Positions 1-5,021 of a stretch of DNA of 5,021 nt are shown in pieces. Below the pieces are notes generated by a model. That model was not told where the DNA came from. It saw only the letters and a list, made by a program, of their open reading frames with translations, and did no database searches. Each line of letters starts with the position of its first letter. The first letter of the stretch is position 1. The position numbers were made by a program, and so were the translations under genes. Source of the DNA: a virus (taxonomy: Duplodnaviria; Heunggongvirae; Uroviricota; Caudoviricetes); IMG/VR virus record IMGVR_UViG_2693429748_000017; one strand, written 5' to 3'.

Positions 1-1712
1 GTGGCATCTTTCGGTTGCTTACCCGCAAGCGCGTTAGTCATGGTGGTCGCAAAATTCGGGTCGTTGCCCAGCGCCGCAGCCAGCTCGTTCAGCGTGTTCA
101 GTGCATCAGGTGACGAATCTACAAGGGCGGCAATCGCAGCCATAACGAAAGCCGTGCTTGCGATTTGGGTATTATTCGTTCCCTGTCGCGCAGTTGGTGT
201 TGTTGGCGTTCCGGTCAGTGCAGGACTATTTAAGGGCGCTTTCTTGTTCGTTTCACCCATTACCGCCTTAACCGCTTTTGGCGTTGCCGCCAGTGACTCG
301 GAAGTGCTGTTGGTCGCACTGCTGAGCTGTACTATCCCCTTTTTCGTCGTGCTCGCATCCTCAAGCGCCACGGCGGATGCAATATCCTCTGCCCGTTTTG
401 CTGCTGTCTCGGCGCGCGTTGCCGCGGATTCAGCAGCAACTTTGCTCTGAGATGCAGCCGTCGCACTGCCTGCCGCCTCTGATGCTTTCGTTGTTGCTGT
501 CGTGGCACTACCTTTCGCTGCTGACGCTTGTCTGGTCGCCTCATCTTTTGAAGCAGACGCAGATGATGCCGATGACGCCGCTGAACTGGCTGACGATGCG
601 GCTGCTGCCTTAGAGGAAGCAGCATTGTCTGCTGAAGTCTTTGCATTTGTTTCAGAGGTTTTTGCTGCAGAAGCAGACCTCGCTGCTGCAGTGGCTTGCT
701 CAGTGGCTTTGCCAGCCTTCGTTGTGGCTGTTGAAGCGGATGATGCGGCGCTTTCTGCCGATTTTCCGGCGGCGGTGGCACTGGCTGAGGCCTGCCCGGC
801 ACTTGTTGACGCGGCACTGGCAGATAATGCAGCCGCTGTTTTTGAACCTGCCGCAGCTGAGGCGCTCTGTCCCGCTGCTGTTTCAGAAGACTTAGCGTTC
901 GTCTCGGACGTTTTTGCCGCCTTCGCGGAATTTCCTGCCGCCGTTGCCGAGGAAGCTGCACTACTGGCACTTGATGATGCATTCGTTTCTGAAGATTTCG
1001 CTGCCTCTTTTGAGGCCGCCGCACCCCGTGCCGAGGTGGCAGCTTCTGACGCCTTCGTGGTCGCTGTGGATGCAGAAGTGGCTGCCGATTTTTGTGATGC
1101 TGCGGCATTCGTTTCTGACGTTTTCGCGGCACTGGCGCTGGTAGCTGCCGCGCTTTTTGATGACTCTGCAGCAGCACTTTTTGCTGCTTCACGGGCCTTT
1201 GTCGATGCCGTTCCTGCGCTGGAAGACGCTGACTGAGCCGACGACGCGGCCTGTCCGGCTGACGTGCTGGCGGCACGTGCTGAGGCTGCAGCATCGGTTG
1301 CATGAGTTGCCGCCTCGCTGGCTGATTTTTTCGCGGCTGCCGTATTCTGTGCAACCGCGGAGGCGTTACGTGACACCTCTTCCACCATCTGCTCAAAGCG
1401 GCGCAGTGCCTCCGGTCGGACATCATCCTCCGTCATGGCACCGAGAAAATCATTCAGCGTACCTGGTCTGGAACCTTCATAGACGGTAATGGTCCCGGCA
1501 TGTGAAGGCGGAAAACCTTCAACCAGCAGGGTGACGCTGTACTGACCATGCTCAACATCCATGCTGTAACGTCCGGCTTCATCCGGATTTTCAGAGGCCA
1601 CCGTGTTCACCACCATCGTGCTGCTGGTTCGTCTGGCCTTCAGCACAATGGTGCAGTTCTGTACTGGTTTTCCTGTGCCATCTTTAAGCACGCCAGAAAT
1701 TTTTACTGTCAT
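1..1712 (-). CDS. stf: Side tail fibre protein Stf, N-terminal ~570 codons (ATG at 1712..1710; C-terminal part lies beyond the window start)
   Basis: Manual translation of the minus-strand frame from ATG 1712 gives an open frame to position 1 with no stop: MTVKISGVLKDGTGKPVQNCTIVLKARRTSSTMVVNTVASENPDEAGRYSMDVEHGQYSVTLLVEGFPPSHAGTITVYEGSRPGTLNDFLGAMTEDDVRPEALRRFEQMVEEVSRNASAVAQNTAAAKKSA... then a long Ala/Ser/Thr-rich region, then ...KKGIVQLSSATNSTSESLAATPKAVKAVMGETNKKAPLNSPALTGTPTTPTARQGTNNTQIASTAFVMAAIAALVDSSPDALNTLNELAAALGNDPNFATTMTNALAGKQPKDAT. From memory this matches the N-terminal part of phage lambda Stf. Shine-Dalgarno-like GGTGG at 1723..1719, 6 nt upstream of the ATG. The frame is missing from the supplied ORF track, presumably because its stop is outside the window. 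Confidence 0.88.
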   Translation of the reverse strand, partial: MTVKISGVLKDGTGKPVQNCTIVLKARRTSSTMVVNTVASENPDEAGRYSMDVEHGQYSVTLLVEGFPPSHAGTITVYEGSRPGTLNDFLGAMTEDDVRPEALRRFEQMVEEVSRNASAVAQNTAAAKKSASEAATHATDAAASARAASTSAGQAASSAQSASSSAGTASTKAREAAKSAAAESSKSAAATSASAAKTSETNAAASQKSAATSASTATTKASEAATSARGAAASKEAAKSSETNASSSASSAASSATAAGNSAKAAKTSETNAKSSETAAGQSASAAAGSKTAAALSASAASTSAGQASASATAAGKSAESAASSASTATTKAGKATEQATAAARSASAAKTSETNAKTSADNAASSKAAAASSASSAASSASSASASKDEATRQASAAKGSATTATTKASEAAGSATAASQSKVAAESAATRAETAAKRAEDIASAVALEDASTTKKGIVQLSSATNSTSESLAATPKAVKAVMGETNKKAPLNSPALTGTPTTPTARQGTNNTQIASTAFVMAAIAALVDSSPDALNTLNELAAALGNDPNFATTMTNALAGKQPKDA

Positions 1713-1725
1713 ACTTTTCCACCAA

Positions 1726-1757
1726 TAAAAAAAGCCCGCAGCAGTGACGCCACGGGC
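1726..1757 (-). terminator. Putative intrinsic terminator on the minus strand between lom and stf (stem AGCCCG/CGGGCT with 13-nt loop, followed on the minus strand by a 7-nt U-tract)
   Basis: Seen in sequence: plus strand aaaaaaa(1726..1732) agcccg(1733..1738) cagcagtgacgcc(1739..1751) cgggct(1752..1757). On the minus strand this reads hairpin then TTTTTTT. The loop is long, so folding energy is uncertain. Confidence 0.35.
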
Positions 1758-1863
1758 TTCAGGACAGTGTAACTTTACGTTTCCTCAAACGCAGTTCACC
1801 CCATAAGGTGGATGAACCTGCGTATCATAACAATATTTACAGAAGATAAATCGGCGTCTGTTG

Positions 1864-2463
1864 TCAGATACGGTATCCGATACCAACAATAAATGCATCC
1901 GTTCGCCAGTCACCACTACCGGAACCTTCATAAGCAAGGTCAATGGTCACGGATTCGGTCGGGTTAAACTGCACGCCAGCCCCCCACGCCAGAGACGTGT
2001 TGCTGTGGCGACCGTCATCACTTCCGGTCAGCACATCGTGCGTTTTCCCCTTGTTGTCAGTTACGCGGAGATAATCCCCGGAGAAAGTCGACACACGGCT
2101 GTAAGCCACACCCACCATCGCATACGCGCTGAACCATTCATTCACGCGTACAGACGGCCCCGCCATCACGCTGAACCAGCGGTTACGCACGGAATCTTCA
2201 TGCCAGCGGGTATCGCTGTAGTGCGTTTTTTGCTCATCCTCAGCATTGGCATAACTGAAGGACGTAATCAGCCCCAGCGCGTCCGTAAACTCATAACGGT
2301 ATTTCACGTTAATCCCGTTCAGATTATCGCTGCCGGGAGCGTTCGTACGGGCATGAAGATACCCCGCGCTCAGTGTGGACTGATGTTCAGACGCCCATGC
2401 AGGCGCACCGGATACGGCCAGGCAAATGGCTGCGGACAAAATGGCTGCACAAACTTTACGCAT
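1864..2463 (-). CDS. lom: Outer membrane protein Lom (Ail/Lom family beta-barrel), intact copy, 199 aa
   Basis: ORF 1864..2463(-). N-terminal signal peptide MRKVCAAILSAAICLAVSGAPAWA with AWA|S cleavage motif. Sequence ...STLSAGYLHARTNAPGSDNLNGINVKYRYEFTD...[114 protein letters not shown] closely resembles phage lambda Lom as I recall it. SD-like GAGAGG about 6 nt upstream of the ATG (minus strand aaaagcGAGAGGtaattATG). Confidence 0.9.
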   Translation of the reverse strand: MRKVCAAILSAAICLAVSGAPAWASEHQSTLSAGYLHARTNAPGSDNLNGINVKYRYEFTDALGLITSFSYANAEDEQKTHYSDTRWHEDSVRNRWFSVMAGPSVRVNEWFSAYAMVGVAYSRVSTFSGDYLRVTDNKGKTHDVLTGSDDGRHSNTSLAWGAGVQFNPTESVTIDLAYEGSGSGDWRTDAFIVGIGYRI

Positions 2464-2486
2464 AATTACCTCTCGCTTTTCTGCAA

Positions 2487-2511
2487 TAAAAAAGGCGCCA
2501 TTTCTGGCGCC
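2487..2511 (-). terminator. Putative intrinsic terminator between the J' cassette and lom (stem GGCGCCA/TGGCGCC, loop tttc, U-tract on minus strand)
   Basis: Seen in sequence: plus strand aaaaaaa(2487..2493) ggcgcca(2494..2500) tttc(2501..2504) tggcgcc(2505..2511), a perfect 7-bp GC-rich stem. On the minus strand the hairpin is followed by TTTTTTTATTG. Paralogous to the hairpin at 3861..3878 with a compensatory base-pair change. Confidence 0.5.
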
Positions 2512-2530
2512 CGTATATGGGTTATAAAAT

Positions 2531-3352
2531 TCAGCTGATACTGATGCCTGCGGTGGCTTTCTTCATCACCACAACCAGCAAATCGCTGATACTTGCTGTG
2601 GGATACCAGTTATTCACCAGCCATGCTGACACCGAAAACTCCAGCGTCATGTGGCCGCGACCAGCTGGCATATCAATAACACCACTGTAAATCAGCGTAT
2701 TATCCAGCGCGGTACGGTTATAAATTTCAGCACCGTTTTTCCGTACTATCAGGCGGCATGACGAATAAATATCGTTATTCTCCCGCTCATGTTTAGCGCC
2801 GCTGAATGCCACCGCCGGAATAACAATTTGCCTGTCAAAAGGCTGATCGTCATAAATCCTGACGGTAATGGTCCCTGATGGCCACCGCTCCGGTGCCCGG
2901 GAGTCCCGCGGAAAAGCCTTACCCACTGTTTTGACTATATCGCCTTCAATCTGGTTGGCTGACAGTTTCCCCTTAATCTGACAGTTCTCATTAATTGTGA
3001 CATTGTTGAGCGTCCCGGCGTTCGCATTCACACTGCCACTGATATCTGCATTTTTAGCGGTCAGTTTTCCGTCCGGTGTCAGGGAAAATGCCGGAGGATT
3101 ACCGCCGCTGGTAATGGTGGGAGCCGTCAGGCGTTTCAGGAACACGTCGTTCATGAATATCTGATCGCCCTGACCAACAAACATCGGCTTTGTGTTGCCA
3201 TTCGCAGGATTAATCATCGCAATCCTGTCTGCCGCCAGCAGCACCTGACTCTGCATTCCTGCTGGCGTATTCTCAATACCGGCACCGATACCCGCAATAT
3301 AAAGGCGTCCGTCCTTCATCTGTTGCAGCTTCACAGCCCACATGCTGTTCAG
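2531..3352 (-). pseudogene. 5'-truncated, promoterless 3' segment of a second tail-tip/host-specificity gene J (J'), encoding the C-terminal 273 aa with an alternative receptor-binding domain; stop at 2531..2533
   Basis: Minus-strand translation [273 protein letters not shown]. The first ~120 aa are nearly identical to the J copy at 3901..5021 (nt 2997..3352 vs 4385..4740, same length, ~94% identical by eye). Homology to J starts abruptly at 3352, directly abutting lom-derived sequence. The track ORF 2531..3388 only adds out-of-frame lom-derived codons with a poorly spaced GGAAG before GTG/ATG, so independent translation is doubtful. Confidence 0.75.
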
Positions 3353-3830
3353 ACGCCAGAGACGTGTTGCTGTGGCGACCGTCATCACTTCCGGTCAGCA
3401 CATCGTGCGTTTTCCCCTTATTGTCAGTTACGCGGATATAATCCCCGGAAAAAGTCGACACACGGCTGTAAGCCACACCCGCCATCGCATACGCGCTGAA
3501 CCATTCATTCACGCGCACAGACGGCCCCGCCATCACGCTGAACCAGCGGTTACGCACGGAATCTTCATGCCAGCGGGTATCGCTGTAACGGGTCAGCTGG
3601 CGATTCTTGTCTCCTGCATAGCTGAATGACGTCACCAGCCCCAGCGTATCCGTAAACTCATAACGGTATTTCACGTTAATCCCGTTCAGATCATCACTGC
3701 CGGGAACGTTGGTCCGGGCATGAAGATACCCCGCGCTCAGCGTGGACTGATGTTCAGACGCCCATGCAGGCGCACCGGATACGGCCAGGCAAATGGCTGC
3801 GGACAAAATGGCTGCACAAACTTTACGCAT
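3353..3830 (-). pseudogene. lom: 3'-truncated lom copy (Lom residues 1..159) fused at 3352/3353 to J'-derived sequence; the ORF reads on out of frame to a stop at 3273..3275, adding a 26-aa nonsense tail
   Basis: ORF 3273..3830(-) translates MRKVCAAILSAAICLAVSGAPAWASEHQ...[10 protein letters not shown] followed by [26 protein letters not shown]. Nucleotide homology to the intact lom (1986..2463, offset 1367) ends exactly at 3353. The last 40 residues of Lom (WGAGVQFNP...GIGYRI) are missing. Same SD and start context as the intact copy. Confidence 0.8.
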
Positions 3831-3853
3831 AATTACCTCTCGCTTTTCTGCAA

Positions 3854-3878
3854 TAAAAAAGGCGTCATTCCTGACGCC
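3854..3878 (-). terminator. Putative intrinsic terminator immediately downstream of J (stem GGCGTCA/TGACGCC, loop ttcc, U-tract on minus strand)
   Basis: Seen in sequence: plus strand aaaaaaa(3854..3860) ggcgtca(3861..3867) ttcc(3868..3871) tgacgcc(3872..3878). The minus-strand transcript would read hairpin + UUUUUUAUUG, located between the J stop (3901) and the truncated lom start (3830). Confidence 0.5.
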
Positions 3879-3900
3879 ATTTATTGGGGTTATAAATATT

Positions 3901-5021
3901 TCAACGAATACTGATGCCGGAAGCCGCTTTTTTGGTCACAATCACCGTACAGTCGGTGATATTGCCTGCCCCCTGATTGCCTTTCTGGAAAATCTTAAAC
4001 TCCAGAGTGACGCTACCACCACCACTAGGCATATCAATAACTGCACTGTAACTACCGGGAATGGCACCTTTAGTTTCTCTGGATGCGATTAATACGCCGT
4101 TTTTGCGAACTTCAAAACCATAACCCGTGTATCGCGTGCCTCCTGGGTTATTTCCGCTCCCCGGATCGTCATACGCTATACCGTTAAAAATAATGGGCGG
4201 AATAATAATCTGGCGGTCAAAGTTATGATCATCGCTTATGGTGACTGTAACCGTCCCGTTTGGTGTTTCCGTGTTACCCCACGTACCAGCCTGTTTCGGA
4301 AATGATTTGGATACAGCTTTAACGAAGTCACCTCTGACCTGAGTCGCCTCCAGCATGCCCTTAATCGTACAGTTTTCATTTACCGTGACATTGTTGAGCG
4401 TCCCGGCGTTCGCATTCACACTGCCACTGATATCCGCATTTTTAGCGGTCAGCTTTCCGTCCGGAGTCAGGGAAAATGCCGATGGATTTCCACCGCTGGT
4501 AATGGTGGGGGCCGTCAGGCGTTTCAGGAACACGTCGTTCATGAATATCTGATCGCCCTGACCAACAAACATCGGTTTTGTGTTGCCATTCGCAGGATTA
4601 ACCATCGCAATCCTGTCCGCCGCCAGCAGCACCTGACTCTGCATGCCGTCAGGGGTGTTCTCAATACCGGCACCAATACCCGCGATATAAAGGCGTCCGT
4701 CCTGCATCTGCTGCAGCTTCACAGCCCACATGCTGTTCAGGTTATTATTTGTATCAACCTGAACCTTCTGTATCTGCTGGATTGCCGCACTCTGGTCTTT
4801 CAGTTTCTTATTGACAGTCTGCGTGATTTCATTGCTGACATCCGTAATGGACGTCCTGATTTCAGCCAGGTCAGGCGCAAGCTGACCGTTATCAATCTGC
4901 GTCCACAGCTCCTGAGCCAGATGGGTTTTCCCTATCTCGCCTTTGAAAAAATCCAGATAACCGGATGCATCATCACTCGGCTGACCAACAGCCTCCACGA
5001 ATGCCGATTTGCCAACGGTGT
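3901..5021 (-). CDS. J: Tail tip / host specificity protein J (central tail fibre), C-terminal ~373 codons; 5' end lies beyond the window end; stop at 3901..3903
   Basis: Minus-strand frame is open from the window edge: ...TVGKSAFVEAVGQPSDDASGYLDFFKGEIGKTHLAQELW...[127 protein letters not shown]...KKAASGISIR*. Motifs [59 protein letters not shown] and the C-terminal KKxxxGISx match phage lambda J as I recall it. The track ORF begins at a GTG at 4998, but the frame continues upstream to 5021. Confidence 0.9.
   Translation of the reverse strand, partial: TVGKSAFVEAVGQPSDDASGYLDFFKGEIGKTHLAQELWTQIDNGQLAPDLAEIRTSITDVSNEITQTVNKKLKDQSAAIQQIQKVQVDTNNNLNSMWAVKLQQMQDGRLYIAGIGAGIENTPDGMQSQVLLAADRIAMVNPANGNTKPMFVGQGDQIFMNDVFLKRLTAPTITSGGNPSAFSLTPDGKLTAKNADISGSVNANAGTLNNVTVNENCTIKGMLEATQVRGDFVKAVSKSFPKQAGTWGNTETPNGTVTVTISDDHNFDRQIIIPPIIFNGIAYDDPGSGNNPGGTRYTGYGFEVRKNGVLIASRETKGAIPGSYSAVIDMPSGGGSVTLEFKIFQKGNQGAGNITDCTVIVTKKAASGISIR

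Follow-up and report, generated by a model that had tools for sequence, protein, structure and literature searches.

The window, the whole 5,021-nt stretch of DNA analysed here, carries all of its genes on the minus strand, in the transcriptional order J 3' part, lom', J', lom and stf (Table 1). Pfam searches recover a J C-terminus with a receptor-binding domain twice, a full Lom once, a truncated Lom once and the stf N-terminus. The J 3' part, whose stop codon is at 3903-3901, includes a C-terminal receptor-binding domain that we call type 1; that of J' is unlike it and is called type 2. The truncated lom' is fused at 3353/3352 to a point inside J'. GC content is 0.55 in lom, 0.48-0.52 in the J segments and 0.57 in stf, with no clear deviation of lom.

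Table 1. Genes and RNA features of the 5,021-nt window
Feature	Position	Strand	Basis
J 3' part (tail tip gene)	3901..5021	-	Pfam Phage_Tail_Tip and Ig_GpJ_C; ORF 3901..4998
Hairpin A stem-loop	3861..3878	-	Fold and terminator scans
U6 tract of hairpin A	3855..3860	-	Read from sequence
Conserved leader ATTGCAGAAAAGC, SD and ATG of lom'	3828..3854	-	Read from sequence
lom', truncated	3353..3830	-	Ail_Lom profile positions 1-164 of 199; ATG at 3830
J', J fragment without 5' end	2531..3352	-	Pfam Ig_GpJ_C, 1-135 of 135
Hairpin B stem-loop	2494..2511	-	Fold and terminator scans
U6 tract of hairpin B	2488..2493	-	Read from sequence
lom, complete, 199 aa, Ail/Lom outer-membrane beta-barrel	1864..2463	-	Pfam PF06316, E 1e-125
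lom-stf spacer, 151 nt, ending in hairpin C and U7			
Hairpin C and U7 tract	1727..1760	-	Fold and terminator scans
stf (side tail fibre gene), 5' part	3..1712	-	Pfam phage_tail_N, 1-134 of 134; ATG 1712-1710

The original prediction, made from the sequence alone, placed a terminator-like hairpin ahead of each lom copy, with stems differing by one compensated base pair and with a U-tract, the lom SD and ATG behind each, and a third hairpin with a U-tract just before stf. Reading the minus strand bears this description out. Hairpin A (3878 to 3861) is GGCGTCA-GGAA-TGACGCC, a 7-bp stem with five G-C pairs and a GNRA loop. Hairpin B (2511 to 2494) is GGCGCCA-GAAA-TGGCGCC, with six G-C pairs in a stem of 7-8 bp, the optional eighth pair being a G.U at 2512/2493. 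The fifth stem pair is U-A in hairpin A and C-G in hairpin B (T/A and C/G in the DNA), and pairing is kept in both. Downstream of hairpin A come TTTTTT (3860 to 3855), ATTGCAGAAAAGC, the SD GAGAGG (3841 to 3836) and the ATG (3830 to 3828), and downstream of hairpin B come TTTTTT (2493 to 2488) and the lom ATG at 2463. The 31-nt leader with GAGAGG and ATG is identical behind the two hairpins. Hairpin C has a stem of 9-13 bp (about 1734-1757) and a U7 tract at 1727-1733, from the end of which 14 nt lead to the stf ATG. In all three hairpins the U-tract (U6, U6 and U7) starts at the base of the stem. The loops of hairpins A and B also differ by one base, GGAA against GAAA, a difference that the first reading of the sequence had left unmentioned.

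Folding confirms the anticipated stability of all three structures (-12.6 to -24.3 kcal/mol). Hairpin A folds at -12.6 kcal/mol (z -5.1), hairpin B at -14.7 kcal/mol (z -4.2) and hairpin C at -17.4 kcal/mol for 1726-1757 (z -4.8) or -24.3 kcal/mol in a longer context; across hairpins and contexts z ranges from -3.3 to -5.1. A strict terminator scan (minimum stem of 7 bp, 5 or more G-C pairs, 6 or more T in 8) returned exactly hairpins A, B and C in the window, each of them in an intergenic gap and on the coding strand. Dinucleotide shuffles gave 0.05 expected hits each, and 0 of 300 reached three. A lenient scan also included A, B and C but showed no overall excess, with 7 sites found against 5.8 expected. 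Hairpins A, B and C are real, stable and terminator-shaped, and lie on the sense strand. Each combines a GC-rich stem-loop, a 3' U-tract and placement at a gene end, as an intrinsic terminator does. A search of the whole window against Rfam 15 at E <= 1 gave no covariance-model match at the hairpins. The matches returned were weak ones to isrG only (19-27 bits against a gathering score of 100), on the opposite strand and inside stf.

Conservation of the J-end hairpin

A single compensated pair carries little weight alone. If two of the 14 stem positions are substituted, the second change will hit the partner of the first and restore pairing with a probability of about 0.03, or about 0.08 if only transitions are counted. 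We therefore turned to a population sample, assembled from an IMG/VR scan that took the lom SD and ATG, and not the hairpin, as its anchor, a Lom-protein scan with one genome per species, and several phage records. It yielded 134 junctions that could be anchored on a conserved motif immediately behind the J stop. In 128 of these the 7-bp stem is perfect, with Watson-Crick pairs throughout, in 3 it has a single G.U and in 3 it is imperfect, although many of the sampled sequences are close relatives and such counts overstate the number of independent events. Four stem alleles were found: GGCGCCA/UGGCGCC, GGCGUCA/UGACGCC, GGCACCA/UGGUGCC and GGUGCCA/UGGCGCC, the last with one G.U. The first, that of hairpin B, is the commonest (63 junctions), and hairpin A shares its allele with 13 other junctions. 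Nearly all loops are GNRA (GAAA or GGAA), the exception being two loop-flipped alleles with UUUC (L036 and L096). The stretch of leader, SD and ATG at 3828..3854 is identical in 126 of the 134 junctions.

Collapsing the sample to 21 distinct variants leaves 98% of cells paired, with changes on both sides in four of the seven pairs. The variants have a covariation score of 0.305, which 0 of 500 shuffles reached; the shuffles gave 0.151. As a control, the 3' partner was slid by 1-3 columns, and pairing fell to 27-56%. Behind the stem, none of the six T columns varies among the 21 variants; the 5' flank does vary. Because of this stem integrity, covariation and invariance of the T columns, the helix, the GNRA loop and the sense-strand U-tract are, as judged from the sampled sequences, conserved features. 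The argument from covariation in the original prediction thus survives at the level of the population (128 of 134 junctions; 4 of 7 pairs) but is weak for the pair within the window (about 0.03-0.08). The covariation indicates that the helix is maintained, as expected for a terminator, with the caveat that the sequences are related and the stem is a perfect DNA palindrome. In perfect DNA palindromes, a single template-switch event can change both arms without selection at the RNA level. The two loop-flipped alleles show that palindrome events at the DNA level do occur at the J-end hairpin.

Unrelated stems occupy the equivalent site in more distant phages. A Citrobacter prophage has AGCGCUC-AUUC-GGGCGCU, a relative with 44% Lom identity has GGCACCU-CAGG-AGGUGCC, and lambda has CGUCCG-GGAA-CGGGCG followed by UUUUAUUAU. 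In lambda (NC_001416), the hairpins lie between J and lom (about 18925-18949) and between lom and orf401 (about 19612-19639). Like the window, lambda has a GGAA-loop hairpin with a U-rich tract between the J stop and the lom SD, and a second hairpin with U6 just before stf. Unlike the window, it has an unrelated J-lom stem of 6 bp (CGUCCG/CGGGCG) and an interrupted U-tract (UUUUAUUAU). The lambda records NC_001416 and J02459 have no terminator annotated at the J-lom junction.

Closer relatives do carry such annotations. In mEp460 (NC_019716), the J-lom site at 18380-18406 and the lom-stf site at 19055-19080 are annotated as rho-independent terminators, in Ayreon (MF807953) the corresponding sites at 18454-18494 and 19128-19173 as terminators, and in phage 21 (OL657228) the J-stf hairpin at 19195-19222 as a terminator; all of these GenBank features are predictions, not experiments. 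They share the position, the architecture and, in essentials, the sequence of the window hairpins. In phage 21 the hairpin reads GGGCGCCAGAAATGGCGCC, with T6 behind it, and matches hairpin B exactly; the Ayreon stem is the GGCACCA/TGGTGCC allele. What sets the window apart from these three phages is that it holds two copies, with the J'-lom cassette joined to a truncated lom, and that hairpin A is the GGCGTCA-GGAA allele and hairpin C of a rarer, long-spacer type. The J-end and lom-end elements are already annotated as terminators in related phages, and the finding is real but routine.

The lom cassette and the origin of the two copies

The hairpin had been proposed as an element separating J from lom. 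Three phages without lom, Tritos, PhiR63_1 and phage 21, carry the same hairpin and TTTTTTATTT right behind the J stop, and continue directly with GTGGAGTGA(A/G)TATG, the stf SD and start. In lom-carrying phages, divergence starts right after TTTTTTATT, and the stf start resumes past the lom block. That block is made up of a 21-nt leader that contains the SD, of lom, and of a stem-loop with a U-tract of the hairpin C type. A hairpin is found at this last position in 107 of 107 sampled lom-stf junctions, in two sequence types. Because phages that lack lom carry the same hairpin directly before stf, it is, by this comparison, a 3' element of J and not specific to lom.

A moron, in the description that PMC3594210 takes from Juhala et al. 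(2000), is an extra gene, flanked by conserved genes, that brings its own promoter and terminator and is expressed from a repressed prophage; lambda Lom is cited as a moron product (PMC3594210). Here, lom lies between genes that are adjacent in related phages (Tritos, PhiR63_1 and phage 21 have J-hairpin-stf). Phages that are otherwise collinear differ in whether they have lom between J and stf, and in all 107 junctions lom has its own predicted factor-independent terminator downstream. It differs from the description in that the cassette has only 21 nt ahead of the lom ATG, with no promoter-like site found, and in that the upstream hairpin belongs to J. Taken as a comparison of gene orders, the layout is that of a classic moron that brings a terminator of its own downstream and is inserted exactly where the J terminator meets stf.

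The original prediction took hairpins A and B for paralogous copies whose stems had covaried while diverging. Both stem alleles, however, are common in ordinary single-copy J-lom junctions elsewhere. Each allele tends to accompany a particular J 3' end, and one 5' context can bear different stems. Comparison of the two cassettes gives 93% identity between 4358-4740 and 2970-3352 and 91% between 3361-3918 and 1994-2548, and the receptor-binding segments between these matching blocks have no DNA similarity. With both alleles common elsewhere, flanks that differ by 7-9% and unrelated receptor-binding segments, we rejected duplication in place followed by divergence. Positions 598-3353 share 99.9% identity with a contig that has the normal single-copy order J-lom-stf (L130), and positions 3353-5021 are 97% identical to another contig (L094). 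Flanking homology is absent at the lom'/J' junction (3353/3352), and this junction was not found in 5,426 complete E. coli genomes or in any fetched locus. On these identities, the window is a join of two phage lineages, its second cassette of J C-terminus, hairpin and lom coming from the other lineage. The join may be a product of natural illegitimate recombination or an assembly chimera. Because the second cassette came from another phage lineage and was joined to the truncated first lom, the apparent compensatory substitution is best described as a difference between pre-existing alleles.

Proposed termination and read-through, and the expression of lom

Taken together, these comparisons make it probable (roughly 0.8) that hairpins A and B are two natural alleles of a Rho-independent terminator at the 3' end of J in lambda-like siphophages, with termination and read-through by Q carried over from lambda. 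We use tJ as our own working label for this J-end element. It would act as RNA, on the sense strand of the late operon, through its 7-bp GC-rich stem, GNRA tetraloop and U6. Its ancestral position would be between J and stf, and the lom cassette (21-nt leader with SD, lom and hairpin C) would have been inserted right after the tJ U-tract. As the cassette sits behind tJ and ends in hairpin C, lom would be bracketed by two terminators. Structurally, the case for terminators is well supported by the sequences.

How these sites might behave follows from established lambda biology. According to PMC7547250, transcription from the late promoter is terminated without Q. Polymerase not modified by the late antiterminator Q would be expected to stop at A, B and C, and J, lom and stf would for that reason be transcriptionally separate in a prophage. 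In a lysogen, stray or read-in transcription from J into lom would be blocked, and a lom transcript would end at hairpin C, before stf. During lytic growth, Q-modified polymerase from pR' would read through all three sites, so that stf would still be expressed. Lambda lom is reported to be expressed in lysogens and strongly in the lytic cycle, and read-through by Q agrees with both reports.

Such a scheme does not explain how lom is transcribed in lysogens. The original prediction connected the hairpins with lysogenic expression and pointed to a possible lom promoter near the end of J or J'. A promoter scan found no sigma-70-like promoter on the sense strand of the window. A relaxed sigma-70 scan, covering the 250 nt ahead of each of the two lom copies and ahead of lambda lom, gave no convincing promoter either, only -10-like hexamers with poor -35 elements, the best of them the lambda TATTAT. 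The suggested promoter was accordingly not found among sigma-70-like sites in the last 250 nt of J or J' and the spacer. With no lom promoter found, the link between the hairpins and lom expression in lysogens is one that we infer. We found no mapped lom promoter, nor an experimentally mapped J-lom terminator, in the accessible literature. One candidate from that literature, the Phi24B small RNA 24B_1 described as downstream of lom, was dropped as unrelated to hairpins A-C. It is located in the 428-nt lom-vb_24B_43 region, in which its authors found no rho-independent terminator, and they report its sequence as absent from the analogous lambda region (PMC4426718).

A role in mRNA stability or processing is a tentative alternative, and one compatible with termination. 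The hairpin would form in the late polycistronic mRNA during read-through by Q and block 3'-to-5' exonucleases, so that the J segment would be stabilised and the decay rates of J, lom and stf set apart. A stable GNRA-loop structure at a gene boundary, conserved as a helix with covariation, is what such an element would look like, and because stf lies downstream the site must be transcribed through in lytic growth. The invariant U6 speaks for termination instead, since an intrinsic terminator needs it and an exonuclease barrier does not.

That the hairpin is an attenuator in the lom leader seems unlikely. A lysogenic lom promoter would then lie upstream, within the end of J, and the terminator would limit or regulate how far its transcripts reach into lom. 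The U-tract ends only about 15 nt from the lom SD, with the terminator about 25 nt upstream of the SD, and this leaves no room for a lom promoter downstream of the terminator. In copy A, moreover, an extended -10-like TGAAATATT lies 70 nt ahead of the ATG, at the stop codon of J. Neither copy B nor lambda has this site, however, no promoter-like site turned up in the scan of the sense strand, and the same hairpin occurs in phages without lom and therefore did not evolve for lom. A combined arrangement, in which the J terminator doubles as an attenuator and lom in lysogens is transcribed from an activator-dependent promoter in the J 3' end, at a level set by partial read-through, appears slightly more doubtful still.

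We give very little credence to a DNA palindrome without RNA function. Such a palindrome might bind a protein or serve as a recombination linker, and replication errors that correct palindromes would keep it perfect and make the covariation mutational rather than selected. In its favour, the inverted repeats are perfect, loop-flipped alleles exist, one 5' context bears different stem alleles, and the site marks a mosaic boundary, with variable J ends on one side and lom or stf on the other. Against it, a sequence-specific binding site is hard to reconcile with the unrelated stems at the equivalent site in lambda, the Citrobacter prophage and the relative with 44% Lom identity (L163), a role at the level of DNA does not account for the GNRA loops or for a T-tract that is both invariant and strand-specific, and hairpin C at the next gene boundary has the same architecture. 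On account of the strand-specific U-tract, the GNRA loops and the unrelated stems at one site, a purely DNA-level role is unlikely.

With termination at the 3' end of J as the preferred reading, covariation at the population level backs a predicted intrinsic terminator at the J end, and another after lom, in lambda-like phages, and the lom insertion point falls exactly at the boundary between terminator and stf. This is of use for annotation and for the choice of engineering payload sites after J, and otherwise means little beyond housekeeping. It does sharpen the small question of where the lysogenic lom promoter lies, given a predicted terminator that precedes the lom ribosome-binding site by about 25 nt. 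Tandem cassettes of J C-terminus, terminator and lom recur, in the window and, independently, in another locus (L069). It is conceivable, though improbable, that they are silent, terminator-insulated spare receptor-binding modules. If so, recombination across the 383-nt shared J segment (93% identity) could swap such a module into J.

Junctions and tandem cassettes

The lom' copy is truncated, covering positions 1-164 of 199 of Ail_Lom, and its join to the J' fragment is out of frame and occurs without homology. We did not find this junction in 5,426 complete E. coli genomes, nor in any of the fetched loci. Its two sides match ordinary single-copy prophages, at 99.9% (L130) and 97% (L094). The junction may have arisen naturally, through illegitimate recombination, or it may be a chimera of the assembly. 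A tandem duplication of the J C-terminus, hairpin and lom is present in a fetched locus, L069, where the copies are spaced 1496 nt apart and lom is complete in both. The L069 junction differs from that in the window, and the duplication is independent; therefore, arrays of J-C-terminus/lom cassettes recur. Such arrays could serve as spare receptor-binding modules.

Features of the window and of locus L069
Feature	Location	Strand	Description
lom'/J' junction	window 3340-3365, join at 3352/3353		truncated lom' fused to internal point of second J fragment
Tandem duplication	L069 3458-6405 (IMG/VR UViG_2671180353_000009)		J C-terminus + hairpin + lom
Leader, 31 nt	window 3828-3860 and 2461-2493		U-tract to lom ATG; same sequence in both copies
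Second lom-stf spacer hairpin	window 1789-1822	minus	imperfect, ~13 bp; no U-tract after it
isrG matches (Rfam)	window 395-1156	plus	three, weak; 19-27 bits vs gathering score of 100

Hairpin orientation and inverted alleles

Hairpin A, which follows J, has CAATAAA on its upstream side and TTTATTG on its downstream side (window 3851-3890), and these are able to lengthen its stem. On the plus strand, the hairpin also scores as terminator-like, with the tail ATTTATTG. Hairpin A may be weakly bidirectional, unlike hairpin B, the copy following J', which is not. Separately, the J-lom junctions of loci L036 and L096 carry the hairpin allele GGCGCCA-TTTC-TGGCGCC, in which the usual GAAA loop appears as its reverse complement. 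The entire palindrome is flipped, and inversion of this sort is a hallmark of events that act on palindromes at the DNA level.

The lom-stf spacer and the lom leader

The lom-stf spacer of the window is 151 nt, compared with 64 nt in lambda, and this type is rare, occurring in only five phage records, P-EibA among them. Within stf, the isrG matches lie on the strand opposite the gene's repetitive, alanine-rich part, and their source is probably the tail-fibre gene repeats rather than an sRNA.

The lom leader is identical in 126 of the 134 sampled junctions, anchored on a conserved motif just after the J stop. While the leader does not vary between the window's two copies, the adjacent lom coding sequence differs by ~9%. 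Conservation of the leader is unusually strong.
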